From positions 1 through 44,973 of the forward strand of contig CAZQBY010000010.1 in NCBI GenBank assembly GCA_964592405.1: a stretch of 44,973 bases of DNA, written 5' to 3'. Source of the stretch: an uncultured archaeon. Lineage in GTDB: Archaea; Altiarchaeota; Altiarchaeia; JAFGQM01. The notes beneath the pieces are model-generated. The model had not been told where the DNA came from, searched no databases, and saw only the letters and a list, made by a program, of their open reading frames with translations. The position numbers and the translations under genes are program-made. Below, in pieces: positions 14,267 through 44,019 of the stretch (position 1 is its first letter; every line of letters starts with the position of its first letter).

Positions 14267-14497
14267 TTGTCGGTTAACATCCAATCTCACGTTCTTGTCC
14301 CCCAGCATGAGATACTTGATGAAGCCAGTGCCAAGAAGGTTCTGATGAAGTATGGTGTAGACCGTTCTAAGCTCCCCAAGATAAAAAAGAGCGACGCTGC
14401 CCTGCCCGAGGGTGCGAAAATCGGGGATATAATCCAAATCACCAGAAAATCGCCGACTGCAGGTGTTTCTCTCTACTATAGGGTTGTTGTGGAATGA
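14267..14497 (+). CDS. rpoH: DNA-directed RNA polymerase subunit H (Rpb5 homolog)
   Basis: 76 aa: HVLVPQHEILDEASAKKVLMKYGVDRSKLPKI...GDIIQITRKSPTAGVSLYYRVVV. Confidence 0.9.
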   Translation: MSVNIQSHVLVPQHEILDEASAKKVLMKYGVDRSKLPKIKKSDAALPEGAKIGDIIQITRKSPTAGVSLYYRVVVE

Positions 14498-14534: not shown

Positions 14535-17500
14535 ATGCAGATAACACGAGACGACCTCATAAAACACCAGCTGAACTCCTATAATGATTTTGTCAACAAT
14601 GTCATGCAGGAGATAGTCGATGAGACGGGCATTATCGATACAAGAATACCAAACTTCCAGATAAAGTTCGGAAAGATATCCCTAAAAAAGCCCGACACAA
14701 AGGAGATGGACTCTACGGTCCACCGCATAACGCCAAATGATGCCCGTCTGAGGAATATGACCTATTCGGGTAAACTGGTTCTGGAAATTATAGGGGTGCA
14801 GGACGGAATTGAAAAAACACCCATAAATGCAGTCATAGGCGAATTCCCGATAATGGTCAAGAGCGACTACTGCTGGCTCACTGGTCTAAATGAAAAGGAG
14901 TTAGCTGAGCTGGGCGAGGACCCAAAGGACTTTGGGGGATACTTCATAATCAACGGAAGGGAGCGGGTGGTAATCATACTGGAGGACTTGGCCCCCAATA
15001 CCATCATTACCAGTCTTGATGAGGTAGCCGGCAAGGATAACATCACGGTCAAGGTCTTCTCCACCCGCCAGGGTTTCAGGAGCAGGATTGCTGTCACAAG
15101 GAAAGAAATGAGAACAGGTGAAACCCTCTATGTCTCTTTCCCCGGTCTGCCACGCATACTTCCGTTGTCTGTTGTCCTTCGTGCGCTGGGTCTCAAAGAC
15201 GACCAGATACTTGAGCTTTTCGAGGACGAGGAAAAGCCGGAGATGAAGGTCAATCTGGAGCTGTGTAAGGTCAAAAATCAGCGGGAGGCACTCGAATATA
15301 TAGGTGTCCGTGTTGCTGTGGGCCAGAGGAAGGAGATACAGGTCACTCGTGCGCAGCAGGTCCTTGACCTGTTCCTGCTGCCACATATAGGGAACGAGCC
15401 AGAACTAAGGCAGAGGAAGGCAATCTTCCTGACCCGCATGGCGAAGAGAGCCATCGAGATTGATCTTGGAACAAGAGATGTGGATGACAAGGACCATTAT
15501 ATGAACAAGCGACTGAAGATAGCTGGTGACATGATGGAAGAACTCTTCAGAACCGCATTTGGCGCACTTGTAAAGGACATCAAATATCAGACCGAAAAGA
15601 ACTATGCCCGGAGAAAGCGCATTGATCTGAGGCGTGCCGTCCGTCCGGAGGTCTTCACAAAGAGGGTTATGTATTCACTCGCCACCGGGAACTGGCCCGG
15701 CGGGAGGACCGGTATTTCACAGATACTGGATCGCACTAATTATATAGCAGTTTTGGCCCATCTCAGAAGGGTTACATCCACCCTTTCACGCACTCATCCG
15801 CATTTTGAGGCCAGGGACCTCCATGGTACCCATTGGGGCAGGTTCTGCCCCTGTGAAACTCCTGAAGGACAGAACTGTGGCTTGGTCAAGAATCTGGCCC
15901 TGTCTGCGCACATAACCCGGGAACAGGACCCGCGGGTAGTCGAGCAGATGCTAAAGGAGTTCAATGTTGAGAGCGGAAAATACGTCATTGAGGTTAATGG
16001 CAGGATAATTGGTTTTACAAACAACCCAAAAAGTGTTACAAACAAGATAAAAACCCTGAGAAGACAGGGCAAGCTCTCAAATGACATCAATATAGGGGTG
16101 TTTGAGGATAACAAGGAGATACAGATATTTTGTGACAAGGGCCGTGTGCAAAGACCGCTGGCAATAGTGGAGAACGGAAAGCCACTAATCTCAAGGGCTG
16201 AGCTAGAAGGCATTCTAAGAGGTGAGATAAACATTGATAAGCTTATTAAAGAAGGCAAGGTGGAGTATCTTGATTCTCTAGAAGAGGAAAACGCCTATAC
16301 AGCTATTGACATCAAAGAGCTCACTCCCCAACACACTCACCTAGAGCTGGACCCCTCGCTAATAGTAGGTGTTGGAGCATCGATAATACCCTATTCGGAA
16401 TATAACTCCTCACCTAGGATCACTATGGGGGCAGCCATGAGCAAGCAGTCCCTTGGCTATTATGCCACCAATTTTGTATCCAGAACAGATACCCGGGCGA
16501 ATCTGCTGCATTATGTCCAGAAGCCCATAGTCACAACACATGGTATGAAAATATCAGGCTATGAAGAACTCCCGAGTGGACAAAACTTCATTGTCGCTAT
16601 CATGAGCTATGAGGGCTACAACCTTGAAGATGCCTTGATATTCAATCAGTCCTCTGTAGAGAGGGGTTTGGGGATCTCCACTTTTTTTAGGACCTATGAA
16701 ATAGAAGAGAAGCGATATCCCGGTGGCCAGAAGGACAAGTTCCAGCTGGTTGGAGAGGACGTTGAGGGATACAGGGGAGCGGAAGCATATCGCTTCCTGG
16801 ATGAAACTGGTGTTATTGATCCGGGCATAGAGGTTGGCCCATCTGATGTTCTTGTGGGTAAATCCTCACCCCCGCGATTCCTGGAGGAGATAGGTGAGTT
16901 TGGGCTTCTGGGAGACAAGAGAAGAGAGTCTTCTCTTTGTGTCAGACCTAGGGAATCCGGTATTGTTGATCAGGTTATCATGACCCTTCTTGATAACGGC
17001 AACCGCTTGGTCAAGGTTCGTGTAAGAAAGGGGCGCTATCCGGAACTTGGGGACAAATTTGCTTCAAGGCATGGCCAGAAAGGCGTTATCGGCCTGCTTG
17101 TACGCCATGAGGATATGCCCTTTACTGGAAGCGGCATAGTTCCAGATCTGATTATAAATCCACATGCCATCCCGTCAAGAATGACTGTTGGTCATCTGCT
17201 TGAGATGATTGGTGCAAAGGTTGGGGCCATGGAAGGGAGGCAGGTAGATGGCACAGTATTCAAGGGAGAGAAGGAAAAAGACTTGCGTGAAGCTCTCAAG
17301 AAAGCAGGCTTTAAAGCTAGTGGTAAAGAGGTTATGTATGACGGTAAGACCGGCAGGAAGTTCGATTGTGAGATATACATAGCTCCCATATACTATCAAA
17401 AACTCCATCACATGGCCTCGGGCAAGATGCATGCGCGCTCTAGAGGGCCGGTTACGCTTCTTACTCACCAGCCTACAGAGGGCCGGGCCAATGAAGGGGG

Positions 17501-17785
17501 GCTGAGGTTCGGAGAGATGGAAAGAGATTGTCTTATAGGCCACGGGGCATCCCTCCTCCTCAGTGAACGACTGGTTGAGGAATCTGATCCATCTGAGATA
17601 CTTGTCTGTCCGGAGTGTGGAGAAGAGGCTGTAAGTGATGTTTCATCCGGCAAGTTTACATGTCCGGTATGTGGTGAAATAAGCCCTGTCTTGGTGAGGG
17701 TTCCACATGCGTTCAAACTCCTCTTGGATGAAATCAAGTCGATGTGTATCTCTACTGCCATCCTGACCGAGGAAAAGACGAAAAA

Positions 17786-17789
<4 letters not shown>
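14535..17789 (+). CDS. rpoB: DNA-directed RNA polymerase subunit B, unsplit (no B'/B'' division)
   Basis: 1084 aa with GGYFIINGRERVVI, the C-terminal zinc motif CPECGEE...CPVCGE, and the rest of the Rpb2 hallmarks. Confidence 0.95.
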
Positions 17790-21648
<3,859 letters not shown>

Positions 21649-21680
21649 TCAAATCAATCCACATACAAGAACAGACATAC

Positions 21681-21733
21681 AAGAACAGAAAATAACAGAA
21701 AATAACAGAAAATAACAGAAAATAACAGAAAAC
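21681..21733. repeat. Tandem 10-bp repeat (AATAACAGAA) x4 perfect, plus degenerate flanking copies
   Basis: Positions 21691-21730 are four perfect copies. The degenerate copies are acatacaaga, acagacatac and aagaacagaa. The array sits in the rpoA''-pgi intergenic spacer. Confidence 0.85.
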
Positions 21734-21767
21734 TGGCACTTTTTAAAATACTCTCCAAAATTAGGTT

Positions 21768-22286
21768 ATGGATCTTGATTTGAGAAATTTCAGCCTCCAT
21801 CTAGATGAGAACCAGAGGACTGTAAGGAGGCTCAGTGACATGAAGGGATTCTATGCTGATCAAGAGGCAGTTGCACAAATCCTAAAGGAATCTGACCCTG
21901 TGATATATGAGGTATATGCCTGCGAGTCCGAAGAAGAGGGTCCCGGAAATCTCTCATATGCCCTCACAGTCATCAATCCGGGTGATGTAGGGGGGGAATA
22001 TTACATGACAAAGGGGCACTTTCACCACAAGCCATCTGCTGAGCTCTATCTGGGTCTGGAGGGAGAAGGCATTCTTCTTTTACAGGATAGGGAAGGAAAT
22101 ACGAGGAGGATACCTCTTCTGCCGGGGAGGGTGTCATATGTCCCAGCAAACTATGCCCACAGATCGATTAACACAGGCCGTTCACAACTAAGATTTCTTG
22201 CCATATACCAGAGCGACTCTGGTCATGATTACGGCACAATAGAAAAAGAGGGCTTCAGGGAGAGAATTCTGGTCCAGAAAAATTAG
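21768..22286 (+). CDS. pgiA: Cupin-type glucose-6-phosphate isomerase (cPGI)
   Basis: VRRLSDMKGFY, DPVIYEVYA, TKGHFHHKPSAELYLGLEGEG, YVPANYAHRSINTG and FLAIYQSDSGHDYGTIEKEGF are near-identical to signature blocks of the Pyrococcus furiosus cupin PGI. Confidence 0.85.
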   Translation: MDLDLRNFSLHLDENQRTVRRLSDMKGFYADQEAVAQILKESDPVIYEVYACESEEEGPGNLSYALTVINPGDVGGEYYMTKGHFHHKPSAELYLGLEGEGILLLQDREGNTRRIPLLPGRVSYVPANYAHRSINTGRSQLRFLAIYQSDSGHDYGTIEKEGFRERILVQKN

Positions 22287-22488
22287 TGAAAAAACAGAGA
22301 CTGGCGGGATCAGCCACATGCCGACCAGCCGCATGATCTGCATAATTTACACCCTTCTACAAACTCCAGTGAACCTCCGCATTCAGGACATGTGGTCATG
22401 TGGAGTTAATGTCTTCAAGTATAAAAGTATTAAAACCCGCTCAGAATTTCATATATTTTTATTGTCTTGAAACCAATATGTTTTGAAT

Positions 22489-23985
22489 CTATGGCGGGCA
22501 ACTCAGGAGTGGCCTGACTTCAAATTCCCTTCCCCTCCCCCCAATATAGAGTTTTGCTTTTCTTGGACCGATTACATGAAAGCGGTGTATGACCCTGCTT
22601 TCTAGGGGCATCGGTAGCTCATCTTCATTCACAAAGATCGCCCCCGGGTGGTTGGTTATCAGCTTGTTTATTATCTCAGCCTGCATTATTCCATTTCCAA
22701 ACCATTCCATGTTTATGATTATGGGCAGTATATGCTCCATTCTCTTCTCTTCTATCTCAGAAAGCGATCCTGAGATCCTGAGCTCCTCTATAGCGTCCAG
22801 CAAATATAGCATGAAGGCAAGCCGCTTTCTCTTGTCCAGCTTCAGCATTGATATGTAAACGGTTTTGTTATCCTTGACCCAATTGTATATCATATCTCTG
22901 GTATTGGCTGTTTTTGTAAATATATCCCCATAGACCTTCTTTACAGTCCGCAGAATCCTAAGGGCTCGTGCCTTTGTCCGCTTGGTACCCTCCTCACCGG
23001 ATTTTATATCATCAATAATGCTCTCCACATTTTCAAGAGCCGCGGACTTCTGCAGTTTGTTCACGGATTGAAGTATCATTGTTGAGGCATCATCTGTTCC
23101 CAGCCCAAATAGCCTCCAGATGAATTGGGGGCTGGCCTGATTCAGGTTTATCCTAAACTTGGACTCCGGTTCTGATGGATCATATCTCTCCAGAGTGAAG
23201 CCCACATTATGGCTCTCAAGACCATATTTGCTGTAGTCATATGGATATGGGTTTGCCTGATCCAGCTTTAATGGGCACTTGCTGGAATCCAATATGAGCG
23301 GTATGGGCGACGCATCTATTATGGCATACTCGGCAAGCATCTGGGCTAGGTAGTTCCTTTCCTCCTCCGTTCCTTTTTTAATCGAGGTAAAACTCTCAAA
23401 TATGGTTTCTTCAACATTTACTATTCCATCCTTCGACTCTCCAATTGCAAAAACATCCAGCCTTTCCTTTTTGGGTTCCTCTCCCTGAGGAGCTATGCTC
23501 AGAAGGCTCAGGAGTATGGTCGGATTGCCCAAGATACTTGCAGAGTCCTGATAGGATGCATCCTTCAGGTCTATGACCTCCACCTTGTTTCTTTTGGCAA
23601 CCCTCTTTATTTCCTCTACCTTTTCGTTCAGACTCATAACCTTCTGAAAGACCACAGAGCCTATCTCCCTGCTTCCAAAGTCTACAGTGGTCGGTGGATT
23701 CAGAAGTATAAGGTAGGTTACATTTCTTCCCGGTATATACTGCTTTAGAATATTGATGTTCATGTCTCTGAGCTGCCCCTCTATCCTCTCTATACCCTTC
23801 GGGACAAGAAGGATCTTGTCCACTCTGATCATTATCCAGCTAACCTCACCAAATTTGGGGAAGATGGTTGTAAGCAGGACTTTGTCCTCGTTCTCATATA
23901 CTGCTACATTGAACTGGTTCCACACACCTCCAAACAGCCGCTCCCACGGCCCTCCGGGAAGGTTCCAGACGCTCTTGGATACCAT
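22489..23985 (-). CDS. Uncharacterised protein of about 499 aa (the ORF track extends it by 6 codons to 24003)
   Basis: A long uninterrupted ORF with no recognisable catalytic motif and no Walker A. The likely start is MVSKSVWNLPGG at 23985. The spacer to the divergently oriented gene is 42 nt and contains TTTAATAAAA. Confidence 0.6.
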   Translation of the reverse strand: MVSKSVWNLPGGPWERLFGGVWNQFNVAVYENEDKVLLTTIFPKFGEVSWIMIRVDKILLVPKGIERIEGQLRDMNINILKQYIPGRNVTYLILLNPPTTVDFGSREIGSVVFQKVMSLNEKVEEIKRVAKRNKVEVIDLKDASYQDSASILGNPTILLSLLSIAPQGEEPKKERLDVFAIGESKDGIVNVEETIFESFTSIKKGTEEERNYLAQMLAEYAIIDASPIPLILDSSKCPLKLDQANPYPYDYSKYGLESHNVGFTLERYDPSEPESKFRINLNQASPQFIWRLFGLGTDDASTMILQSVNKLQKSAALENVESIIDDIKSGEEGTKRTKARALRILRTVKKVYGDIFTKTANTRDMIYNWVKDNKTVYISMLKLDKRKRLAFMLYLLDAIEELRISGSLSEIEEKRMEHILPIIINMEWFGNGIMQAEIINKLITNHPGAIFVNEDELPMPLESRVIHRFHVIGPRKAKLYIGGRGREFEVRPLLSCPP

Positions 23986-24027
23986 TTTAATAAAACAATG
24001 CATAATTATAGTTGTTTGACTAAAAAG

Positions 24028-24954
24028 ATGAGTGGCTCCAAACCTGAAGAACTAGTTGCTAAGCTCTATGAGGATGGTATGAGTGATGACGAGGTAAGGG
24101 AGCAGCTGACGGATTTCGGCCTGTCGGGCAGGGAGATACGTCACCTCATAAAGAAGGCAAAAAAATTGATTAAGGAAGGCAAGACCCGGGCGAAAGGGCC
24201 GGCCGGGGGGCCTGATGAGGAACCCAAATCACCAGTTCCCGCGGAGCCTGATCCCATGATACAACAACTTATGAAGGAGGCTAGAGAATCATCGGCCACC
24301 AGTGAGTCCGGCCCAGCCGAGTTAGAGCCTTTTGAACCTGAAACCCAGGCAGTTCCCGGGGAGGAAACCGGCGGCTTTGAGGAGTCCAAGGAAGTAGAAG
24401 AAGGGGTCAAAAAACCAGTAGAAAAAGAAGAAAAACCCAAGAAGGGCGGCTTTCTCTCAGGACTCTTCAAAGAAAGAAAAAAAGAGAGCACTGAGAAGGA
24501 GGAGAGGATTTCAAGGGCGGAGCGCCGTTCTTCCAGAAGGGCTCACGATGCTGAATATATGGCCAAGATGAAACGCCTGAGCATGATAAAGGAGGCCATA
24601 TCCAAACCTGTTGCCATGCCCAAGGAACCGGAAGCAGCTCCGGCGGAGAAGACAGAAGAAGGGATTGAGAAAGTGCCCGAGATGGAAGTGCCTTTGGAGG
24701 GCGCTACTGCAAAAGAAGGTGTGGAAGAAAGGAGCGAGGATGTGGAAGAAAGGGGCGATGTAAAGGAAACATCTGAAAAGGTCACAACTAAGGCTCTAAC
24801 TACAGAAGAAGAGAAAAAAATGGACGAAGAAACTGCAAAAAAGCTGATGGATGGAATGGACAAGCTAGAGACTGAAATGGGCGAGATCAAGCAGTTGCTT
24901 GATACCCTGCGCGAGCTGAATATTAAGCTGATTGAGCTCATGGAGAAAAAGTAG
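24028..24954 (+). CDS. Acidic E/K/P-rich protein: small N-terminal domain, long disordered linker, C-terminal coiled coil
   Basis: MSGSKPEELVAKLYEDGMSDDEVREQLTDFGLSGREIRHLIKK, then a low-complexity acidic region, ending DKLETEMGEIKQLLDTLRELNIKLIELMEKK. It is divergent from the 499-aa gene. Confidence 0.55.
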   Translation: MSGSKPEELVAKLYEDGMSDDEVREQLTDFGLSGREIRHLIKKAKKLIKEGKTRAKGPAGGPDEEPKSPVPAEPDPMIQQLMKEARESSATSESGPAELEPFEPETQAVPGEETGGFEESKEVEEGVKKPVEKEEKPKKGGFLSGLFKERKKESTEKEERISRAERRSSRRAHDAEYMAKMKRLSMIKEAISKPVAMPKEPEAAPAEKTEEGIEKVPEMEVPLEGATAKEGVEERSEDVEERGDVKETSEKVTTKALTTEEEKKMDEETAKKLMDGMDKLETEMGEIKQLLDTLRELNIKLIELMEKK

Positions 24955-24985
24955 GGTTTATAAAGCCCCAAACCGAATTTATAGT

Positions 24986-25642
24986 ATGGCCATAAAGACC
25001 TCCCACCTGCTGGGCCTCCTGACACTGGGATTCATAATACTCCTGATAGGCTGGCCCTGGTGGCTTGGTATAGGAATAATCCTCCTGTCAATGGCTGTAG
25101 CAGTTAGTGGTGAGAGCGAGGAGCCGGCACCCATGCCCGTGCCTGTGGAGAGGGCTGGTCAGGCTGCAGTGGCCGGAGTGGCGCAACCCGGTTCACAGCA
25201 GGCCGCACAGGCCGAGCCAAAGTACTTCGACGATTGGGGTGAAGACCAGCCAAACTGGACATTTCCGGACATAAGCAAGGACCTGAAGTTCAAGATATCT
25301 ACACCCTCGGATGCCATAGGTGATATGAAGACTATGAAGGACCCATATCATGATGGTGTGGATCACATAGGCGCGGTTGGTGCCAGAACCGGTACATTTA
25401 CCCTCGACCCGAATAATATAATCAGGTTCAAGGACGATTTTAGGATAAAGATAGATCAGATGAGTAAGGAATCAGGTGTTAGTGATGAGGGCCAGATGGG
25501 ATGGGAAAAGGGTGCATATACCTTCAGACTCTACTACAGAACCTCCCCAAAGAGGGCTTGGCCGCGCAGGACAGCTCTTCAATGGAAAGCTCCCCCACCA
25601 GGATACAAGCCAAAGCGCGTTGAATATGCATCATATGATTGA
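24986..25642 (+). CDS. Membrane protein (2 N-terminal TM helices plus a soluble domain of about 150 aa)
   Basis: The likely start is MAIKTSHLLGLLTLGFIILLIGWPWWLGIGIILL. The ORF-track start at 24932 overlaps the upstream gene. It is followed by genes coupled through an ATGA overlap. Confidence 0.5.
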   Translation: MAIKTSHLLGLLTLGFIILLIGWPWWLGIGIILLSMAVAVSGESEEPAPMPVPVERAGQAAVAGVAQPGSQQAAQAEPKYFDDWGEDQPNWTFPDISKDLKFKISTPSDAIGDMKTMKDPYHDGVDHIGAVGARTGTFTLDPNNIIRFKDDFRIKIDQMSKESGVSDEGQMGWEKGAYTFRLYYRTSPKRAWPRRTALQWKAPPPGYKPKRVEYASYD

Positions 25643-26082
25643 TGATGAACCTGTCGATAATCGTTGTCATTGCCGGAGTATTCTTCCTGCTTATGCCGCA
25701 GACTATGTGGATTGGGTTGGCGTTCTTGGCCCTGGGGACAATCACCTATCTAGTATTTCAGAAGAAGCCGGCAGGTATGCCTGTTGGCCGTCCGAGATAT
25801 CTTTCAGCTTGGCCGCAGATTGCTCCACAGCAGCAAGCGGGTGTTGGCTGGTCCATCAAGAGACCGCTGGGCGGGGAAAGGAACCCTGTAGCCCTAGCCC
25901 GGAACCCGTTGGAGCAGCCAGAAAGTGGTCCCAAGCTGGAAAATGGTGTGTTTAGCCTTCCACTCCCAATGAACAACGAGGTGGCCCAGTTCGTGAACTT
26001 GAAGTATAAAGTGCCAACCAAGGCCAAGGGTTTCACCGAGGAGGCTGAGAAACCCTCTCACCCACTAATACCAGGGTTTTAA
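25639..26082 (+). CDS. Small membrane protein (2 TM) with a Pro/Gln-rich tail
   Basis: MMMNLSIIVVIAGVFFLLMPQTMWIGLAFLALGTITYLVF... There is a 4-nt overlap with the upstream gene. Confidence 0.5.
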   Translation: MMMNLSIIVVIAGVFFLLMPQTMWIGLAFLALGTITYLVFQKKPAGMPVGRPRYLSAWPQIAPQQQAGVGWSIKRPLGGERNPVALARNPLEQPESGPKLENGVFSLPLPMNNEVAQFVNLKYKVPTKAKGFTEEAEKPSHPLIPGF

Positions 26083-26117
26083 CATTTATTAAGCTTTTGC
26101 CATTAACTTAAAACAAG

Positions 26118-26417
26118 ATGAACACAGTCCTGGTATTGGTCATGCTCATACTGCTTATCTTTGCCCTGAAGGAGGGTATGGTGTGGGTTGCTCTTGGCGT
26201 GGGTCTGATTATGGTCCTCGTTGCGACGAGTGATGAGGCCGGCAAGAAGAGAGACCGGTTTGTATATCCAAGCGATCAACTGCCGACCATTGAATCTCCT
26301 AAGGAACAGATGCTGAGGGTTAAATACCAGCCTAAGTGGGACGGTAATAACTGGTGGGAAGAGATAGCAGACCACTGGGGCACATCCATAGGCAGAACTA
26401 TAGGCCTGCTGCGATAG
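26118..26417 (+). CDS. Small membrane protein (2 TM)
   Basis: MNTVLVLVMLILLIFALKEGMVWVALGVGLIMVLVAT... It lies on the same strand, 36 nt after the previous gene. Confidence 0.45.
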   Translation: MNTVLVLVMLILLIFALKEGMVWVALGVGLIMVLVATSDEAGKKRDRFVYPSDQLPTIESPKEQMLRVKYQPKWDGNNWWEEIADHWGTSIGRTIGLLR

Positions 26418-26447
26418 CCTCTGTTGAATCCAGTCCAAATATTCAAA

Positions 26448-27707
26448 TCATCCAAAGATAGCGTCTATACGGTCTATGGCCTCTGATACCAGAGTTTTCC
26501 TGACCAAGGAGTTCAGGAACGGGGTGTCCATGTTTGAAATTGCCAGCCTGACATCACTCTGCTCTACGGTATCATGTCCGTAAATGGCTGCTATCAATCT
26601 TGAGAGTGGGTCCAGGTATACAATCATACCATTGGAGAGCAACAGGGTTTCTATGGCATAATCAACAATCAGGACGCCCTTGTAATCCAATAAGTATTCC
26701 GCGAGGTAGGCCACACTCATCTGGAAGCCAACACGCCTTACCAGAAGCTTCATGTAATCTGCCAGCTCCTCAAGTGCTCCTTCCGAATAGCAAAGGCTCT
26801 CAAATGTGTTCCACCTGTATGAGTTTCTGCCAGCCCTGACTGACCACCAGCCGGCCCTGACGGGTAACCGCATAACCTTTTTGCCCTTGGGCAGAAAGAT
26901 TATATTATCAAGATCCCTGAAAACGTTCCTCCAGCGGTCTTTTGATGGCGAATAATCCAGAATACCTGTGATATTGGGAATCCTCTTCAATATCCTCTTA
27001 TCCTGCATTGTGGCATCAGCCGTGTCATAGGGTTCGCCTGTTATGACGCCATGGCTCGCCAGCGTGACTTGATCCGACCATGCTCTGATGGTTTCTATCA
27101 TATTCCCGGGTTCTTTCACCCTCCCTAGGAGATCTACGGCCTTGTCCATGAATCTGAGCTTCCTGTGCCTCTCCATAAACGCAGGAGGATATGTTGCCCT
27201 GATATGCTCGGCCAGGGTTTTCCTTCTCTTCAGGGCCATGAGCGTAGCCTTTCCATTCTCTGTGTGCATGGCAATGCTCCTTTCTATGTCACGCCTTTTA
27301 ATCCTCGGCTGTGATGGGGAGCCAACCTGGGGACATTTGAGACTTATGTCCACAACCAAATTGTTGTCAAATCCCGGAGTCACCATTAGGGGATAAGAAC
27401 GGCATACCGTCGGCCGGTTCTCATACATGTGGCACAAACCATCTCTCCCCAGTTTCTCACAAAAACCATCGGGTCCAAGCCTCAGGATGGGCCGGGTTGT
27501 ATATCCCCCCAGAGCAGGATAGGCTATCTGTCCATCCAGGCCTGCCTTTTCAAGCCTTTCTATGTCCAGATGAGACAATTCGACCGTGATGCAACATATA
27601 CCACACTTCTCGCAGTTATGTGTTATACCAATTGGAAAGACCGACTCCCATGGAATCTCCCTTCTGCCTATCTTGGTTTTTCCATGGAAATACCTAACCC
27701 CGGTCAT
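26448..27707 (-). CDS. CxxCxxCC (YkgJ/UPF0153-like) putative Fe-S or Zn-binding domain protein with a C-terminal extension of about 300 aa
   Basis: The N-terminal HNCEKCGICCITVE...GFCEKL..GLCHMYENRPTVCRSYP matches the CxxCxxCC putative metal-chelating domain. The remainder has no recognisable domain. Confidence 0.65.
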   Translation of the reverse strand: MTGVRYFHGKTKIGRREIPWESVFPIGITHNCEKCGICCITVELSHLDIERLEKAGLDGQIAYPALGGYTTRPILRLGPDGFCEKLGRDGLCHMYENRPTVCRSYPLMVTPGFDNNLVVDISLKCPQVGSPSQPRIKRRDIERSIAMHTENGKATLMALKRRKTLAEHIRATYPPAFMERHRKLRFMDKAVDLLGRVKEPGNMIETIRAWSDQVTLASHGVITGEPYDTADATMQDKRILKRIPNITGILDYSPSKDRWRNVFRDLDNIIFLPKGKKVMRLPVRAGWWSVRAGRNSYRWNTFESLCYSEGALEELADYMKLLVRRVGFQMSVAYLAEYLLDYKGVLIVDYAIETLLLSNGMIVYLDPLSRLIAAIYGHDTVEQSDVRLAISNMDTPFLNSLVRKTLVSEAIDRIDAIFG

Positions 27708-27754
27708 AATGTATGATTAGGAAGTCCTCTATAAAAAGATTTGAATGAGTTAGG

Positions 27755-28105
27755 TTAATAGCCCATCGGCAGCCCCAGGCCCCCCATGTCAACGCCCCCC
27801 ATTCCATAGGCGTCCATGCCGCCTGCCTGAGATTCCTCCTTGCCGTGAAGAACGAATATTATAAACAACCCACCAGCGATGAGGAGGGCATAAAGCATAT
27901 AATCTGTGCTGCCGGACTTGGAGGCCTCATAGCCGACGTATAAAACCCCCAACGCGATTATGGCGACTATTATATGGTGGGCCCCACCCATCATTATCAG
28001 GAAGATGGCACCAACCCCAATCCCCATATACATCAACGTCTGGTTACCAGAAGTAAGGGCCAGGCCCATGAGGATAAGGAAAAGCAAAAAGGTGGAGGAG
28101 TCCAT
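27755..28105 (-). CDS. Small membrane protein (3 TM) with a Gly/Met-rich C-terminal tail
   Basis: ...GGMDAYGMGGVDMGGLGLPMGY. It is the third gene of the minus-strand operon. Confidence 0.5.
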   Translation of the reverse strand: MDSSTFLLFLILMGLALTSGNQTLMYMGIGVGAIFLIMMGGAHHIIVAIIALGVLYVGYEASKSGSTDYMLYALLIAGGLFIIFVLHGKEESQAGGMDAYGMGGVDMGGLGLPMGY

Positions 28106-28112
28106 CTTCTAC

Positions 28113-28454
28113 TCATTTTTTGCCCGGATAATTGATCCAGCTGCCTGTCCCACCAGTGGGTATCGGCGCAGGATACATCATTCCTTGGGGCGGATTCCTC
28201 AAGAAGCCCATATAAGCCCTGGTCATCTGGCCCTCCACTACCCCTGCTGTAAACCCTCCTATAAACAAATAGCCAAACATCACGAAGAAGAACAGAAACG
28301 CTATCCAAACATGTTGAAAGAATATAAAAAAGACTATAAACGCGGATATTGTTATGCCCAGCACTCTTGACTGGGTAGATTCCCTGACCTTGCGGAAAAG
28401 GTATATCAGGGCTATGATACATATCAGTAGGTGGAGGTCTTCAAAGAGGCCCAT
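28113..28454 (-). CDS. Small membrane protein (3-4 TM) with a Pro/Gly-rich tail
   Basis: MGLFEDLHLLICIIALIYLF...NPPQGMMYPAPIPTGGTGSWINYPGKK. It lies 7 nt upstream of the next gene. Confidence 0.5.
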   Translation of the reverse strand: MGLFEDLHLLICIIALIYLFRKVRESTQSRVLGITISAFIVFFIFFQHVWIAFLFFFVMFGYLFIGGFTAGVVEGQMTRAYMGFLRNPPQGMMYPAPIPTGGTGSWINYPGKK

Positions 28455-28545
28455 ATTATCTTTATTGCAGGTTGTTTAAAAATCAGGCTTCTCAATCAGT
28501 CTGTGGCTGGGTTCTTGATATAGAGACTGGAGGCATGAAAGCGCA

Positions 28546-29784
28546 TCACATCCTGTATCCGCATCTCGCACAAAACATATAGTCCGGCTCAACAGCGGCC
28601 CCACATTTTGGACACACACTAACTCCCTCTGCCCGTTTCTCTCCAGCACTTTTCTTGGATGGTACCTCCTTAGACTTCTCGCCTCTCAGGATAATAATCA
28701 TAGTGACAATCACCACCAAGGCGATGGTGATGACAATAATGGCAATAATGGGCAATGTATTATCCCCAGTTTGTGTTGTTTGTACCCTCCATGGGGGTGT
28801 ACAGTCTTGTGGACAGTTGCAGTAATTCTCCCCCTTGCCACACTCATTGTTACCGCATCTGGCGCAAACAGGGCTTCCATTACATGGTTCATCCGGACAC
28901 CTGCCATCATCCTGTGGCACCTCACAGCCTATCTGTTCAAGCCCCTCGCAGCAACCGAGAGCTACAGGATATGTAGTGATGCTCTGGCCCTCGGCTACAC
29001 ATTCTGGTATGAGGCCGAGATTTGGACAGTCCTCAGGACAAACGGTTCTGTTTTCTCCCTCTCCGCACACACCATCACCACAGACCACTTTCTCTTCTGG
29101 GCTTTCTTCACAGTCTTCGGGACATGTTCCTTCATCTTCTCCGAGAGAGGTATCACATATGCCGTCACCACACTCAAAGAACTTGCCTGATTCATCACCA
29201 ACAATGAACGTTACATATCTGTTTAAGAGCCGGAGGGCATATCTCCCCGGCTTCTCCGGTGTATAGGTGAGGATGCCCTGCCTGTCGGTGTGTGTTGATT
29301 CTATCAAAACACCATCCCTATATGTGGAGCTCACGAAGTCTGTTACCACTGTGATGCTTCCTCCCCAGTGTGTAGCCCCTCTAAGCTGTTCGGATTCCAT
29401 TCTCCCCCCATAATATATCTCCACATCACAGACTATCGGCTTGCCGTTTCGTGTATCGGTCACACTGAGCACAAATGGTTCCCCCACTCTCTTGTCTTTG
29501 GGCATCACGGTAAAAGTGGATGGCCAGTCTTCCTTGACACTCTTGGTTTTTATCGGCCGGCATTCCACCTGACATATCCTCTCATTAATGCACAACACAC
29601 TTTTGACTTCCCCCTCGCCGCAATACTCCTCGCCCGGTTTCATACATGCGGCGTTGCTGCCACAGCTGTATTCAAAGATTACACTGTCCTGTGTGGAGGT
29701 TATGATGTTAAACGAATAGGCTGATGCTAGGACTGTAGACACCATTAAAAACGCTACCAAATGTGATAAAATGCGCACGTCCAC
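28546..29784 (-). CDS. Type-I membrane/surface protein: signal peptide, beta-rich ectodomain, three Cys-rich repeats (CGDGxC...CPxDC), TM helix, cytoplasmic zinc ribbon
   Basis: There is a signal peptide MDVRILSHLVAFLMVSTVLASAYS. The repeats are CGDGICDTSLGEDEGTCPEDC, CGDGVCGEGENRTVCPEDC and CGNNECGKGENYCNCPQDC. The TM helix is LPIIAIIVITIALVVIVTMIIIL and the C-terminal zinc ribbon is CPKCGAAVEPDYMFCARCG. Confidence 0.65.
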   Translation of the reverse strand: MDVRILSHLVAFLMVSTVLASAYSFNIITSTQDSVIFEYSCGSNAACMKPGEEYCGEGEVKSVLCINERICQVECRPIKTKSVKEDWPSTFTVMPKDKRVGEPFVLSVTDTRNGKPIVCDVEIYYGGRMESEQLRGATHWGGSITVVTDFVSSTYRDGVLIESTHTDRQGILTYTPEKPGRYALRLLNRYVTFIVGDESGKFFECGDGICDTSLGEDEGTCPEDCEESPEEKVVCGDGVCGEGENRTVCPEDCPNLGLIPECVAEGQSITTYPVALGCCEGLEQIGCEVPQDDGRCPDEPCNGSPVCARCGNNECGKGENYCNCPQDCTPPWRVQTTQTGDNTLPIIAIIVITIALVVIVTMIIILRGEKSKEVPSKKSAGEKRAEGVSVCPKCGAAVEPDYMFCARCGYRM

Positions 29785-29946
29785 TCTGTCCCTTTTTTTG
29801 GATTTTTGGATTTATTATTGGACCTGCAATTAAAATGGCTCGGCAACCCCAAATCAATCTTTTTATATATTCCATCTCTAAATAGAGGCTTCTGACTAGC
29901 CGAATAAACAAGATGGGGGCCAACCCCCTTTAATGTCAAAACGCCG

Positions 29947-30034
29947 AAAGTCAGCAGCAGAAAGTCAGCAGCAGAAAAACTCAAAAAGATTCAAACGATT
30001 CAGACGATTCAAAAATTCAAAAGATTCAAAATAG
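29947..30034. repeat. Direct-repeat array in the ppdK upstream region: 14-bp AAAGTCAGCAGCAG x2, then about five copies of a 9-bp GATTCA(A/G)A(A/C) unit
   Basis: 29947-29960 and 29961-29974 are identical. 29986-30034 reads gattcaaac gattcagac gattcaaaa attcaaaa gattcaaaa, ending 23 nt before the ppdK ATG. AAAAACTCAA also occurs twice. Confidence 0.7.
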
Positions 30035-30056
30035 AAAAACTCAAGAGAGACCGAAA

Positions 30057-32678
30057 ATGGAAACAGGGAAATACATATATGCTTTTGAAGAGGGCAATAA
30101 GGATATGAAGGACCTGCTGGGCGGCAAGGGGGCCAATCTGGCGGAAATGACTGCTTTGGGCATACCCGTACCTCCCGGTTTTACAATTACTACCGAGGTC
30201 TGTCAGCTCTACTATAACAATGAAAGAAAATACCCCCCGGGCTTCAATGCACAGATGAAAGAGGCGGTTGAGGCCCTTGAGAGCAAGGTTGGCAGAAGAC
30301 TTGGAGACCCAAAGAATCCTCTCCTGGTATCTGTGAGATCAGGAGCCGCAATTTCAATGCCCGGCATGATGGATACCGTGTTAAATCTCGGGCTTAATGA
30401 TGAGACAGCCGAAGGTCTCATCAAGCAGACGAACAATGAGCGGTTTGTCATGGACGCTTACAGGAGGTTCATCCAGATGTTTGGCGACGTTGTTATGGGT
30501 GTTGAACACGATAAGTTCGAGAAAATCCTCCAAGATGTCAAGGACGTGAAGGGGGTCAAACTTGATACAGAACTGGATGCTGCTGATCTGAGAGAGGTGA
30601 TCAAGAGATACAAGGAACTGATCAAGAGGGAAACAGGTGAGGGCTTCCCACAGGATCCGATGAAACAGTTGCAAATGGCGGTTGATGCTGTCTTTGGTTC
30701 ATGGAACAACCCCCGCGCTATAAGATACAGAGAGATACACAATATCCGCGGACTGAAAGGAACTGCAGTAAATGTTCAGACCATGGTTTTTGGCAACATG
30801 GGCAACAATTCCGGAAGTGGTGTCTGTTTTACCAGAAATCCGTCCACGGGTGAGAAGGTTTTCTACGGTGAATATCTCATGAATGCCCAAGGAGAGGATG
30901 TGGTGGCCGGCATAAGAACACCCAAGCATCTAGACGATCTCAAGAAAGAGATGCCGCAGGTGTACAAGGAGCTGACCGATATAATGACCCGTGTGGAACA
31001 GCACTACAGGGATATGCAGGACATGGAATTCACAATACAGGAGGGAAAGCTCTACATACTCCAAACCAGAACCGGAAAGAGGACTGCTGCGGCAGCGGTT
31101 AAGATAGCCGTTGATATGGTAGAGGAGGGGCTGATTGACAGGGAGACCGCCATTCTCAGGGTGGATCCAACATCCCTGAACCAGCTTCTCCACAAGCAGA
31201 TTGATACAAAAGCAAAGCTTGAGGTCATAGCAAAGGGACTTCCTGCATCACCAGGCGCGGCTGTCGGCAGGGTTGTTTTTACTGCAGATGAGGCCGAGGA
31301 GTGGGTTGACGATAGAGGAGAGAAGGTTATACTTGTCAGAAATGAGACCTCACCGGAGGATATTCATGGTATGGCAGTGGCTCAGGGAATACTCACGGCT
31401 AAGGGTGGAATGACTTCCCATGCTGCAGTTGTAGCTAGGGGTATGGGCAAGTGTTGCGTGGCTGGTGCAGAGGACATACGGATAAATTATGACAAGAGAG
31501 AACTCAGGGTTGGTAGTTATGTAATCAAGGAAGGTGATTGGATTTCCCTTAATGGAAATACTGGTGAGGTCATACTTGGTCAAGCACCGGTTATAGATCC
31601 GGAGATGAAGGGAGAGTTTGGAATCCTTATGGAGTGGGCCGATAACCTGAGAAAGCTTGGCGTGAGGGCGAATGCCGAAACGCCAAAAGATGCCAAGGTT
31701 GCCCGAGAGTTTGGTGCGGAGGGCATTGGTCTGGCACGGACCGAGCATATGTTCTTCGAGGGTGACAGGATTGTTGCTGTCAGGGAAATGATACTGGCTG
31801 AAGATGAGAAGGGCCGGCGCAAGGCACTTGACAAACTCCTGCCACTGCAGAGGGGAGACTTTGAGGAGCTTTTCAGAATAATGGACGGCTTGGATGTTAC
31901 AATACGCCTCCTGGATCCCCCGTTACACGAATTTATGCCCCAGACCAAGGATGGCATGAAAGAGGTTGCCAAGCAGATGGGGGTTTCTATAGAAGTAATA
32001 GAAGAAAAGGTAAAGAGCCTGCATGAGATAAACCCAATGCTGGGCTTCCGGGGATGCAGACTGGCCATTGTGTATCCTGAAATTGCTGAGATGCAGACCC
32101 GGGCGATATTTGAGGCGGCCTCTAGGGTCTCTGAACAGGGCGTGAAAGCAAAACCAGAGGTTATGATACCTGTTGTATCAAGTGCGAAGGAGATGCAAAT
32201 CCTGAGGGAGGTTGTTGAGAAAACTGCACGCGCTGTGCTTAAGGAAACAGGTGCGGACATTCAGATAAAGATAGGAACGATGATAGAGCTTCCGAGAGCG
32301 GCCCTCACTGCTGACAAGGTTGCAGAATATGCAGAGTTTTTCTCGTTTGGGACAAATGACCTGACCCAGACGACCTTCGGCTTTTCGAGGGATGACTCCG
32401 GCAAGTTTATACCCATCTACAAAGAGAAGGGCATCTTGGAACAGGATCCCTTTGCTGTTGTAGATCAGGAGGGTGTTGGTGAGCTGATCAAGATTGCTGT
32501 TGAGAAGGGAAGAAAAACACGCCCTGACCTCAAGGTTGGCATCTGTGGTGAACAGGGTGGCGAACCGAGTTCGGTTGAGTTTTGTCACAAAGTGGGTCTA
32601 ACCTATGTCTCCTGCTCACCATACAGGGTACCGATTGCGCGCTTGGCAGCAGCCCAGGCCGCTGTCAGGAGCAAGTGA
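30057..32678 (+). CDS. ppdK: Pyruvate, phosphate dikinase
   Basis: 873 aa: [32 protein letters not shown] (phospho-His) and the C-terminal PEP-utilising domain. Confidence 0.95.
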
Positions 32679-33326
32679 GGGGCTGGCCCCTTTTTCTTCC
32701 TTGTTTTTCTAAGGTTAGCAATAGCCAAAGATGCCAATGATGCGTCCTGCAACGGCTCTTCTGACACGTAGATATGTCGTTCCCAACCTTAGACCTGATG
32801 CTCCCTATGCCAAGAAAAAGGGCAAGACCAAGGGAAGGGGGGTATTGGGAGGCATACTGGATGCCCTCCTCAAGGGCGGGAGGACCCAAAAAGGCAAAGA
32901 GCGCTCAAGGCAGGCCCACGTGATGCTCCCAAGGCTGAGGAATCCTGTCTTGGTCAGGCCACCTATGAGGTTTGTCCCGAGGGCTGTGACCCCGGATGGC
33001 AGGCCAGTCAGAGTGGCGCCGGGAACTTTAGCGTTAGACCCTTTGACCGGCAGACGCGGCTCCATTGCTGACCTCCAGTGGCAGAGAACCGTCATGAGGA
33101 CGAGAACTCCCAGACCTATTGTCCTGCGTGGACGTCTCCCGCCGGCCGCTTCGAGGGCTTGGAGATACCCCACGCGGCCTGAAAAACCTTCACGTTTGAG
33201 GAGATGGCTAAAGAATGAGGGCCGTATATGGCTAGGAACATGGTATCCAGGCAGTAAAGCGGCCTAAATCCTGTTTTTATACCCTAATCTCTTAATTTAC
33301 AAGCACTTTTCAAAAGGTGGTAAAAA

Positions 33327-37919: not shown

Positions 37920-38076
37920 TGGGCTCTGAATGAATATTGGGAATTAATTATTGGGAATTAATATTAATTAAAAATAATAAAATAATAACAAAAAATAACA
38001 AATAGATACTTAACAAAATAATAACATCACAAAACAACAAACAACAGCAAAACAACAAACATCACAAAACAACAAA
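37920..38076. repeat. A/C-rich low-complexity spacer (AATAAT..., ACAAAACAACAAA-like units)
   Basis: About 157 nt almost devoid of G/T tracts, with repeated caaaacaacaaa and aataataa units. It sits between the xpd stop and the next ORF. Confidence 0.6.
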
Positions 38077-42432: not shown

Positions 42433-44019
42433 TTACATATATCGACCGCGTTTCTCAGCCTGCTCTAAGCGCCTGAGGACCTCCGACCTGCCATATCCCT
42501 TCAGAACATTTGCCCATAGTTCATGAACCTTGGCCGGATGGTTTGCATTGAGAGCCTTCTTCAGCAGGAGGAGATCTGTGGCTTTGTCCTCAGTTTTCCT
42601 AGATGTTCCGCCAAGCCCGAAGTCTATAAAATACAGCTCACCATCCCTGACGATGATGTTAGATGTGGTCAAGTCGCCATGTATTATATTCTGTTCATGG
42701 AGCTTTCTGACAAACGAACCCACCTTCACAGCCAGTTCGGGATTGGATTCAATCTCCCTGTATAGTGGTCTGCCGTTTATGTATTCCATTACAAATGTAT
42801 AATTTTCCCTTCTCACATCAAAGACCTCCGGTGTTGGGACTCCTGCTGTGCGCGCACTGTTGAGCAGTTTTGGCTCTCTGGCTGTCCGCAATTTACGTAT
42901 CCCAGTATCTATCTCTTTAATCCTGTATGCTTTCTCAATCCTCCTCTTCACCATTCTGCCATCCTCCAAGGTCAACACAGCCTCGGCGCCCTTCCACCTC
43001 CCCGGAGTCTCCGGCCTGGAGCCTTGTCTTGTCTTAGCCCAGCTTATCACCACCTGGTCGGTCCGGAAGTTCTGGTTGGTCCGGGTTTCTTCTATCTTAT
43101 GCCTTACGCCGCTCTTGTACATCACGAGCCCGGTCCACGCTATCATCACGCCGTTGTCGCCGCAGTAGCCCTTTGGCACGGAAAAGGACGCGTCGTTGTC
43201 CTTGGCCATTATATCCAACATCTCCTGGAGCCTCTTGTTGTTGGCGACGCCCCCCGTCAGCAAAAGACAGTCGGACTTGAGGTGGCATAGCGCGCGCTCA
43301 GTGGCCTCGGTCATCATCGCGAAGGAGGTCTCTTGGAGAGAATAGCACACGTCCTCGATGCTGTTGTCCTGCAGCTTCTTCAGTGATTCGGTGTATATCC
43401 CGGAGAAGGACAAGTCGTTGCCCTTGACAACGTATGGCAGCTGGATGTAATTCTCCCCTTTGCGCGCAAGCTCCTCGATTTTCGGGCCGGCCGGATGCGC
43501 AAGCCCCGCCTTTCTGCCAAATTTGTCCAGCATGTTGCCGACGCCGATGTCCAGTGTCTCGCCGAAGACGCGGTAGCGCATGTCCTTGAACATGAGTATC
43601 TGCGTGTTGCCGCCCGACACATAGAGCACGAGCGGCTGGACCCAGCCGGGGTATTCTTTCCTAGCGAGCATGTTGCCTATCTCTATGTGCGCCACACAGT
43701 GGTTCACGCCGATAATAGGCACATCCAAGAAAAGTGCCAGTGCACGTGCACCCACACCAACGTTTGCCAGACATGCTCCCAGTCCCGGACCTTGGGAGAA
43801 AGAAACCAGATTTATATCCTCTCTTTCTATCCCTGCCTCTTTTAGGGCCTCCCTTACAGCCGGGCCAAAATTATCGGCTATGTATCTGGAAGCCTCTCTT
43901 GGGTGGATTCCTCCCTCTCTTGGAGAATAGGTTCTTCTAACATCAGCCAGGATGTTTCCATCATCAACTATACCAATCCCTAGCGTGTGCGCTGTTCCTT
44001 CAATGCCTAGAGAAATCAC
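42433..44019 (-). CDS. kae1-bud32: Kae1-Bud32 fusion protein (tRNA t6A37 threonylcarbamoyltransferase fused to the Bud32 kinase/ATPase)
   Basis: The N-terminus is GIEGTAHTLGIGIV...GVNHCVAHIEIG (Kae1 metal-binding HxxH). The C-terminus is HGDLTTSNIIV...DFGLG (Bud32 catalytic loop and DFG). Confidence 0.9.
   Translation of the reverse strand: MISLGIEGTAHTLGIGIVDDGNILADVRRTYSPREGGIHPREASRYIADNFGPAVREALKEAGIEREDINLVSFSQGPGLGACLANVGVGARALALFLDVPIIGVNHCVAHIEIGNMLARKEYPGWVQPLVLYVSGGNTQILMFKDMRYRVFGETLDIGVGNMLDKFGRKAGLAHPAGPKIEELARKGENYIQLPYVVKGNDLSFSGIYTESLKKLQDNSIEDVCYSLQETSFAMMTEATERALCHLKSDCLLLTGGVANNKRLQEMLDIMAKDNDASFSVPKGYCGDNGVMIAWTGLVMYKSGVRHKIEETRTNQNFRTDQVVISWAKTRQGSRPETPGRWKGAEAVLTLEDGRMVKRRIEKAYRIKEIDTGIRKLRTAREPKLLNSARTAGVPTPEVFDVRRENYTFVMEYINGRPLYREIESNPELAVKVGSFVRKLHEQNIIHGDLTTSNIIVRDGELYFIDFGLGGTSRKTEDKATDLLLLKKALNANHPAKVHELWANVLKGYGRSEVLRRLEQAEKRGRYM

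Follow-up and report, generated by a model that had tools for sequence, protein, structure and literature searches.

We analyze a block of genes on a 44,973-nucleotide stretch of DNA from an uncultured archaeon of the Altiarchaeota lineage (contig CAZQBY010000010.1, positions 1 to 44,973, assembly GCA_964592405.1; the entire stretch is referred to hereafter as the window). The block follows the RNA polymerase operon, and eight poorly annotated genes lie in it between a gene for a cupin-type glucose-6-phosphate isomerase (PGI) and ppdK, the gene for pyruvate phosphate dikinase. Profile comparison shows that the block belongs to a gene cluster of long standing, conserved in archaea with Altiarchaeota, Micrarchaeota or Diapherotrites labels: profiles built from the window's own clade match the proteins of distant loci that have the same layout. 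The cluster encodes a 498-amino acid (aa) homolog of HerA with a destroyed ATP site, henceforth pseudo-HerA, together with a coiled-coil protein, a series of small membrane proteins and a large surface protein. We rate it as a machine built around a HerA/VirB4-superfamily protein, with the motor inactivated and the other parts unfamiliar. We further propose, with a probability of about one half, that its products would form a single envelope complex in which a passive HerA-like ring is tethered to a membrane platform responsible for holding or assembling the surface protein. The conservation of the cluster and the inactivation of its HerA homolog are much more secure than this proposal as a whole.

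Few DPANN-type archaea or Altiarchaeota have been brought into culture, and most of the membrane and surface proteins peculiar to their lineages await characterization (PMC8204110, PMC6393860). Protein families specific to DPANN are, for the most part, unannotated membrane or extracellular proteins (PMC8204110). A first-pass annotation of the window had singled out the block as its most accessory-looking part and as a candidate for an undescribed membrane-associated system. The second half of that description is borne out: the gene set is membrane-associated, and no published account of the cluster was found in the literature searched (including PMC6393860 and PMC5898192 on dark matter in archaea and the prediction of secretion systems, PMC8204110 and PMC9258230 on protein families of DPANN, PMC8784108 and PMC11329633), its absence there being no proof that none exists. 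Neither is it described in the preprints bioRxiv 2021.04.28.441871 and 2024.05.20.594898, which include a preprint on the Micrarchaeota S-layer. PMC5898192 does predict an archaeal secretion system, but one that is based on MoxR/vWA and distinct from the cluster.

Conservation of the gene cluster

All the sequences compared here are metagenome assemblies, and taxon labels are those of their depositors. Relatives of the block were collected through rpoA'' (loci L002 and L003), through pseudo-HerA in its initial 499-aa prediction (L082-L084) and through a profile of the close pseudo-HerA clade, designated A1 (13 metagenome loci, L090-L102). A scan of a genome collection returned rpoA'' relatives that are 74-76% identical to that of the window at the nearest, all others being about 45% identical. 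Only two genomes fall in the former group, one of them labelled Candidatus Altiarchaeota, and both keep the window's gene order after rpoA''. Across relatives that reach down to 41-48% identity in pseudo-HerA, all loci of sufficient length preserve the succession rpoA''-(PGI)-pseudo-HerA, acidic coiled-coil gene-TM1-TM2-TM3 and CxxCxxCC-TM4-TM5-surface protein, where TM1 to TM5 denote the five small proteins with transmembrane (TM) segments. The rpoA'' gene adjoins the block in 11 loci, all with the same arrangement. Since this arrangement is found in all relatives recovered, the block represents the normal gene order of the lineage. Variation is minor and includes a missing PGI gene in L098, a Lon_C gene inserted in L082, an inverted CxxCxxCC/TM5/TM4 segment in L082 and L098, and the absence of the CxxCxxCC gene between TM4 and TM3 in L097 and L102.

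To extend the comparison beyond the clade, the clade-only profiles were searched against the proteins of five loci (L085-L089; the DPANN loci) belonging to different 50%-identity clusters of the wider pseudo-HerA family, with the database size set conservatively to 1000. Four of these loci (L085, L086, L087 and L089) share a layout that begins with a gene for a 2000-2900-aa secreted protein with Ig-like domains and continues with 5-9 same-strand genes for proteins of 75-207 aa, a divergent gene for a coiled-coil protein of 150-187 aa and the pseudo-HerA gene, after which come a convergent second coiled-coil gene and the gene for a family-B DNA polymerase (PolB). The remaining locus, L088, departs from this layout: pseudo-HerA, the second coiled-coil protein and PolB are present, but the small-protein array is not.

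The clade profile of the coiled-coil protein matches its counterparts in L086 (E-value 2e-6), L087 (1e-4), L089 (2.5e-3) and L085 (0.011). That of TM3 matches p7617 and p7983 in L086 (3.8e-8 and 1.5e-4), p8332 in L087 (2.6e-4) and p8313 in L085 (1.5e-3), and that of TM5 matches p7455 in L087 (4e-10), p6735 in L086 (6e-7), p7204 in L089 (2.8e-6) and p7515 in L085 (7.6e-6). The profiles of two further clade proteins, g113 and g80, match DPANN-locus proteins at 6e-10 to 1e-4. The homology of the small proteins is read from short, hydrophobic profiles; in all, three small-membrane-protein families are common to the window's clade and the DPANN genomes. The first-pass annotation had parsed the block into three separate units, whereas in distant DPANN-type genomes too the genes for pseudo-HerA, the coiled-coil protein, the small membrane families and a large surface protein stay together. 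For the second coiled-coil protein of the DPANN loci, which carries an NPxE[FY] motif, the window's clade offers no counterpart.

PolB adjoins the cluster in all five distant loci and contains an intein in three of them (L085, 12062-15754; L087, 11995-15579; L089, 12288-15977).

The HerA homolog

Pseudo-HerA is encoded on the - strand (22489-23985) and consists of an N-terminal barrel followed by a RecA-like core. Gene starts were corrected from ENA gene calls on the identical contig, which sets the start of pseudo-HerA at 23985 and its length at 498 aa, and likewise fixes the coordinates given below for the coiled-coil protein and TM1 and the probable start of the surface protein. The close family comprises 29 members among 5.8 billion clusters, none of them annotated. 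A profile search among 1.84 billion representative sequences yielded 174 relatives, mostly 470-520 aa long and matching from end to end, so that the protein is not the orphan it was first taken to be. Sequence identity falls to about 20% across this wider family. Its named members come from Candidatus Micrarchaeota (five) and Candidatus Diapherotrites (one), the others being metagenome-assembled genomes labelled simply "archaeon", and the family appears to occur only in genomes labelled as Altiarchaeota, Micrarchaeota or Diapherotrites.

HerA is the best structural match of the protein, with VirB4 second and TrwB matched as well. At the sequence level, a profile of 50 diverse members (A3) detects HerA of Sulfolobus solfataricus (PDB 4d2i) in a search of PDB sequences with an E-value of 3.8e-7; only this broader profile reached HerA, the close-clade profile A1 giving no match to PDB sequences. 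Both parts of the HerA fold, the N-terminal barrel and the RecA-like ATPase core, are recognizable, and the "hhhhD" strand that follows helix 1 is retained. The nucleotide-binding motifs are not. Opposite the Walker A sequence ATGSGKSNT of HerA, the family consensus reads ggteeeRkh and the window protein KGTEEERNY (encoded at 23335-23385), with GSGKS replaced by EEERN at 23353-23367, so that acidic residues occupy the G-S-G positions of the P-loop and arginine stands in place of the lysine. No conserved GK[ST] occurs in 154 members. The Walker B sequence VIEEAH of HerA stands opposite a consensus vipeae in a poorly conserved column, and opposite IINMEW in the window. Other positions are strictly kept across the family, namely one Gly, one Glu and one Arg, and a second Arg, an N-terminal GPW and a C-terminal RPxLS are nearly invariant.

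Judged by these alignments, the protein is a homolog of HerA and not a HerA. It could hardly carry out canonical ATP hydrolysis, because the phosphate-binding loop is replaced by acidic residues. It also differs from HerA in its genomic company: its constant neighbors are the coiled-coil protein and the small membrane proteins, and no NurA, Mre11 or Rad50 partner is conserved beside it. In locus L003 a NurA gene occurs without a canonical HerA beside it.

The coiled-coil protein and the divergent intergenic region

Pseudo-HerA and the coiled-coil gene are arranged head to head and separated by 42 bp (23986-24027), an AT-rich stretch with the palindromic, TATA-like sequence ATAATTAT. This region presumably serves as a shared divergent promoter; a scan for sigma-70 promoters and terminators gave results near the shuffle expectation, the model not being applicable to archaea. 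All clade loci retain the head-to-head pairing, as do L085-L087 and L089, which means every locus covering that side of the cluster except L088.

The coiled-coil protein (24028-24954, + strand) comprises an N-terminal helical domain of ~45 aa, a variable acidic linker and a C-terminal heptad helix with 3-4 hydrophobic spacing. It contains 63 Glu, 13 Asp, 44 Lys and 16 Arg residues (76 acidic vs 60 basic). The linker is hypervariable in length and composition, giving total lengths of 218-636 aa among relatives (those compared include L002 6822-8732, L003 13142-14401 and L082 9299-9955), and the ~45-aa N-terminal domain and a ~50-aa stretch of the C-terminal helix are conserved. Sub-threshold Pfam matches recur in the N-terminal domain, to AF1548-like_C in five of seven sequences and to LEM in two of seven, which we take only as a lead towards a possible helix-extended-helix, nucleic-acid-binding domain.

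Small membrane proteins

Hydropathy analysis predicts two TM segments in each of the three small proteins encoded on the + strand, and four and three in the two encoded on the - strand; in the gene calls, the small-protein genes are tightly spaced or overlapping. TM1 (24986-25642, +) has an N-terminal two-helix membrane hairpin and a tail of ~150 aa, with orthologs in L003, L082, L084 and L090-L102. The TM2 gene (25642-26082, +), whose start overlaps the TM1 stop, encodes an N-terminal hairpin and a basic tail with an LPLP motif at its end, and its orthologs are 28-65% identical across the clade. TM3 (26118-26417, +) combines a hairpin with the conserved C-terminal motif MLRVKYQPKWDGNNWWEE and belongs to a family with 3-5 paralogs per DPANN locus and two copies in L084. 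Weak cross-matches suggest that TM1 may be paralogous to TM2 and TM3.

On the opposite strand, TM4 (27755-28105, -) is a four-TM protein of 116 aa with a Gly/Met-rich C-terminal tail ending in GY, and is 57-94% identical within the clade. TM4-like proteins with the same MDS... start can be recognized by eye in L085, L086, L087 and L089, with weak profile support (E-values of 0.03-0.04); the Gly-rich tail is present in L085 and L089, with the GY ending only in L089, and absent from L086 and L087. TM5 (28113-28454, -) has three TM segments, with a basic, Gly-containing loop between the first and second helix, and three paralogs in the DPANN loci. Two extra TM5 paralogs, g113 and g80, are found within L082 3472-5864, L098 3133-5603 and L084 477-1114 and are absent from the window. 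Aligned with one another, TM5, g113 and g80 prove to share an arrangement of three helices whose first loop is basic and rich in Gly, and the profile of this family returned only chance matches to unrelated membrane proteins among PDB sequences. The tails of TM2, TM3 and TM5 are predicted to be cytoplasmic, because Lys/Arg clusters follow the last helix in each (positive-inside rule).

The surface protein and the CxxCxxCC protein

The surface protein of the window (28546-29784, -; start probably at 29745) is annotated at 412 aa, 31 of them Cys. It comprises a signal peptide, an Ig-like middle region, three Cys repeats of the form CG[DN][GN]xC...CxxDC (29110-29172, 29026-29082 and 28801-28857), a C-terminal TM anchor and a cytoplasmic zinc ribbon (PF13240, E-value 1.2e-6). 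Full-length orthologs of 32-60% identity occur on the same contigs as the other block genes. In L082 the protein is replaced by a Cys-rich protein of 1194 aa, and in the DPANN loci by proteins of 2000-2900 aa.

The CxxCxxCC protein (26448-27707, -; 419 aa) has a Cys-rich N-terminal domain followed by a helical part of ~300 aa. Residues 31-108 match PF03692 with 37.5 bits (cut-off 23), which places the protein in this family, and its homologs carry the same domain. Orthologs are 25-72% identical, and an AlphaFold2 (AF2) model built from a 6-sequence alignment had a pLDDT of 47, too low to be of use. Beyond its absence from two clade loci, the gene is displaced by 4 kb in L084 and was not seen in the DPANN loci, and it is the loosest member of the block, a clade-specific addition. 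Like other members of the YkgJ/CxxCxxCC family, for which we know of no established function, the protein scores above the Pfam threshold; it departs from them in its ~300-aa C-terminal helical extension and in its location in a membrane-protein cluster, seen only in the window's clade. In L082 and L098, the CxxCxxCC gene and that of the large Cys-rich surface protein have between them a gene for a B12-binding radical-SAM enzyme, which is absent from the window.

Apart from PF03692 and the zinc ribbon PF13240, the eight genes gave nothing above threshold in Pfam, NCBIfam, PHROGs or PADLOC. The features first noted in their products (an acidic protein, small TM proteins, Cys repeats, a zinc ribbon and a CxxCxxCC domain) were all recovered by hydropathy, composition and Pfam analyses. 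A defence role for the block is unlikely, given the lack of a PADLOC match and its fixed and universal position.

Genomic context

On its left side, the block is bounded by rpoA'' (20497-21648, +; PF04998, E-value 1.4e-52), the last gene of an rpoH-B-A'-A'' operon that also contains rpoH (14267-14497), an unsplit rpoB of 1084 aa (14535-17789) and rpoA' (17744-20479), all with the expected Pfam domains, and that is preceded in the window by trpB-trpA-ndk. PGI (21768-22286, +) matches PF06560 with an E-value of 1.5e-29 and 103 bits (cut-off 20.7) over 163 of the 182 profile positions, and is therefore assigned to this family, its enzyme activity being a prediction. It follows rpoA'' in L002, L003, L082, L090-L093, L099 and L101. 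The right boundary is formed by ppdK (30057-32678, +; PF01326, PF00391 and PF02896), which lies outside the cluster and does not adjoin it in L003, L082 or L084. The layout given in the first-pass annotation, from the four polymerase genes through a 10-bp repeat, PGI and the uncharacterized genes to ppdK, is present as described.

That annotation also expected rpl30e-nusA-rps12-rps7 to follow rpoA''. To assess this expectation, the genome-collection scan, which returned 80 rpoA'' loci, was probed with the L30e, NusA, S12, S7, EF2 and EF1a genes found downstream of rpoA'' in a Methanococcoides locus (L055), all verified with Pfam. Of the 76 other archaeal loci that continue past rpoA'', 74 have L30e 6-567 bp downstream of it, including Micrarchaeota-, Aenigmatarchaeota- and Nanobdellati-labelled ones, so the expected L30e-NusA linkage is indeed near-universal. 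The S12-S7 part of the expectation is less general: these genes follow NusA in many loci and are lacking in about 24 that are long enough to contain them, almost all of these carrying a Thermoplasmata or Thermoplasmatota label. In the window none of the six probe genes occurs anywhere, none of the ribosomal protein, NusA or EF genes was found in any clade locus, and L30e and NusA do not directly follow rpoA'' in the window, L002, L003, L082 or L090-L101. The canonical linkage is thus broken in this lineage, as had been proposed for the window. Outside the clade, L30e is missing after rpoA'' only in L069 (Methanothermococcus), with no probe gene within 3.5 kb of rpoA'', and in L077 (Thermoplasmataceae), where NusA directly follows rpoA'' without L30e.

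Two A-rich tandem repeats, both 100% identical according to TRF, are placed between rpoA'' and PGI, just upstream of the latter: a 14-bp unit in 2.1 copies (21661-21689), followed by AACAGAAAAT in 4.9 copies (21684-21732). Short A-rich tandem repeats of this kind, with units of 9-17 bp in 2-5 often perfect copies, are found at 1670-1705, 21661-21732, 29946-30031 and 37935-38076, and several lie directly upstream of + strand genes (PGI, ppdK and the open reading frame at 38077). They look like a recurrent 5' leader or promoter feature of the genome, and not like a mark of the rpoA'' junction.

Elsewhere in the window, a Hel308-type archaeal helicase of 1177 aa (4260-7793, -; DEAD, Helicase_dom4_arc and HHH_5) harbors an intein with a LAGLIDADG homing-endonuclease domain. 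Directly after ppdK, a highly basic 178-aa protein without a family match (32731-33267, +; 41 Lys and Arg vs 8 Asp and Glu) is encoded, also on the identical ENA contig, and a Kae1 protein of 528 aa fused to a Bud32/RIO-type kinase is encoded at 42433-44019.

Discussion

In the envelope complex that we propose, the inactivated HerA homolog would form a HerA-like ring under the membrane and act as a passive scaffold, not as a motor. The coiled-coil protein, co-expressed from the 42-bp divergent promoter, would tether this ring to a platform of small membrane proteins, and the platform would in turn serve to anchor, position or help assemble the surface protein, be it the large Cys-rich one or its giant counterpart. 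The CxxCxxCC protein may be a clade-specific metal or redox accessory, accompanied in some relatives by the B12-radical-SAM enzyme and perhaps targeting the Cys-rich surface protein. We regard PGI and the 10-bp repeat as neighbors and not as components.

Several points count against this proposal. The ring, its contacts and its function are deduced from sequence, and gene adjacency over long evolutionary range shows selection for linkage, not a specific mechanism. The near-invariant Gly, Glu and two Arg residues may indicate that an altered ligand or nucleotide site survives in pseudo-HerA. The cytoplasmic orientation of the tails is a prediction from the positive-inside rule, the homology of TM1, TM2 and TM4 with DPANN proteins is weak or visual, and the large proteins of the DPANN loci have no detectable homology to the 412-aa surface protein of the window. 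Because two clade loci and the DPANN loci lack its gene, the role of the CxxCxxCC protein in such a complex is uncertain.

Known archaeal machineries offer partial parallels. In the ArlH/ArlI/ArlJ archaellin machinery, a RecA-fold ring of impaired catalysis and coiled-coil proteins sit under the membrane platform carrying a surface structure, much as proposed here for a putative pseudo-HerA ring. The cluster lacks an ArlI-type ATPase, an ArlJ platform and an archaellin, however, and ArlH keeps its Walker A motif and shows no sequence relationship with pseudo-HerA beyond the shared superfold. The giant "SPEARE" surface proteins of Nanohaloarchaeota have a fused or adjacent VirB4/TraG-like ATPase with well-conserved ATPase domains (PMC10266531), and DPANN loci of the present cluster likewise couple a huge, secreted, Ig-like surface protein genetically to a HerA/VirB4-superfamily protein. 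Whereas one of those ATPases is fused to the giant protein, the HerA-like protein is here separate and devoid of a P-loop and comes with 5-9 small membrane proteins and coiled-coil proteins; the surface protein of the window, with its zinc ribbon, has only 412 aa.

The main alternative to an envelope scaffold is a degenerate or unusual conduit related to type IV secretion systems (T4SS) or to the Ced/Ted systems, in which a HerA/VirB4-fold protein docked on a small-protein channel would move DNA or proteins between cells with the help of an adhesin, powered by another ATPase or by the membrane potential. We consider it unlikely. T4SS and the archaeal Ced/Ted systems for DNA import combine a VirB4/CedB ATPase with small membrane proteins and pilins, and the cluster resembles them in that its HerA/VirB4-fold protein is accompanied by a large surface protein and by many small membrane proteins of two or three helices. 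The VirB4 and TrwB structural matches of pseudo-HerA point in the same direction, as do the sub-threshold matches of the coiled-coil N-terminal domain to small helical domains associated with nucleic acids, the adjacency of PolB in the DPANN loci, and the VirB4-like ATPases carried or neighbored by nanohaloarchaeal giant surface proteins, which have been proposed to be T4SS-like (PMC10266531). A conduit of this type would nonetheless lack a catalytically competent VirB4/CedB ATPase, since Walker A is destroyed family-wide, and the sequence affinity of pseudo-HerA is to HerA and not to VirB4. No locus encodes a polytopic VirB6/CedA-like protein, a coupling protein or a second ATPase, the largest candidate in the window having four TM segments in 116 aa. 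Small hairpin proteins, the form taken by VirB2/CedA1-type pilins, are present, and sequence searches detected no similarity of the small proteins to Pfam families or to solved pilins and other solved chains. Within each lineage the chromosomal position of the cluster is fixed, and searches of plasmids, phages and viral contigs did not find it.

It is also improbable, in our estimation, that the genes are conserved neighbors with no joint function, a cytoplasmic inactive HerA paralog, unrelated small membrane proteins and a surface protein that happen to share a stable chromosomal region. Interaction among the products is indeed deduced from linkage, the genes form separate transcription units on two strands, the CxxCxxCC gene comes and goes, the surface proteins are non-homologous between groups, and L088 keeps pseudo-HerA, the second coiled-coil gene and PolB without the small-protein array. 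The linkage nevertheless outlasts divergence to about 20% identity in pseudo-HerA, different flanking genes (RNA polymerase vs PolB) and local inversions (L082 and L098 relative to the window), and the head-to-head pairing with the coiled-coil gene persists in all loci covering it other than L088. A role of pseudo-HerA in DNA repair, acting with the NurA nuclease in classical end resection, is very improbable. HerA is its top match in structure and sequence, and L003 contains a NurA gene (18499-19584; PF09376, E-value 9.5e-23) ~700 bp beyond the cluster, yet the ATP site that HerA requires for translocation is destroyed, no locus other than L003, the window included, contains NurA, no Mre11 or Rad50 gene is nearby, and the conserved neighbors are membrane proteins. 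Equally slim are the chances of an accessory or horizontally acquired island between rpoA'' and the ribosomal protein genes, a view that goes back to the accessory look noted in the first-pass annotation and has in its favor the missing canonical L30e-NusA genes, the lack of annotation for most block genes and a tandem repeat at the junction. The synteny comparison suggested in that annotation shows the opposite of a patchy insertion: the block is not absent from relatives, and its arrangement is identical in the 11 of 11 related loci that reach rpoA''. GC content in the block (0.45-0.53) is unremarkable against that of the window (0.43-0.56), the window contains no tRNA, Pfam and PHROGs scans found no integrase or phage family, PADLOC gave no defence-system match for block proteins, searches of plasmids, phages and viral contigs recovered no relative of pseudo-HerA, and comparable A-rich repeats precede other genes of the window.

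Taking the proposal of an envelope complex further, we tentatively entertain the idea of an ancient envelope apparatus that would mark an Altiarchaeota-Micrarchaeota-Diapherotrites branch, in which a ring of inactive HerA, coiled-coil tethers and a platform of tiny membrane proteins would deploy the largest surface protein. Such an apparatus might be an organelle for attachment or intercellular contact, or an ATP-independent uptake conduit.

The results have implications for the lineage as well as for the protein family. They reveal one archaeal lineage in which the near-universal rpoA''-L30e-NusA linkage is broken, a feature that can serve as a lineage marker, and the unsplit rpoB and the Kae1-Bud32/RIO fusion may help place this poorly sampled lineage. 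Pseudo-HerA provides an example of ATPase exaptation, in which a hexameric motor ATPase has been turned into an apparently non-catalytic part. The fixed position of the cluster beside RNA or DNA polymerase genes, and its conservation down to about 20% identity, suggest that it is important to the cell. By linking giant surface proteins, which are typical of these organisms, to a cytoplasmic, HerA-derived hub, the cluster constitutes a testable candidate for their anchoring or deployment, and Micrarchaeota co-cultures exist in which it can be tested.

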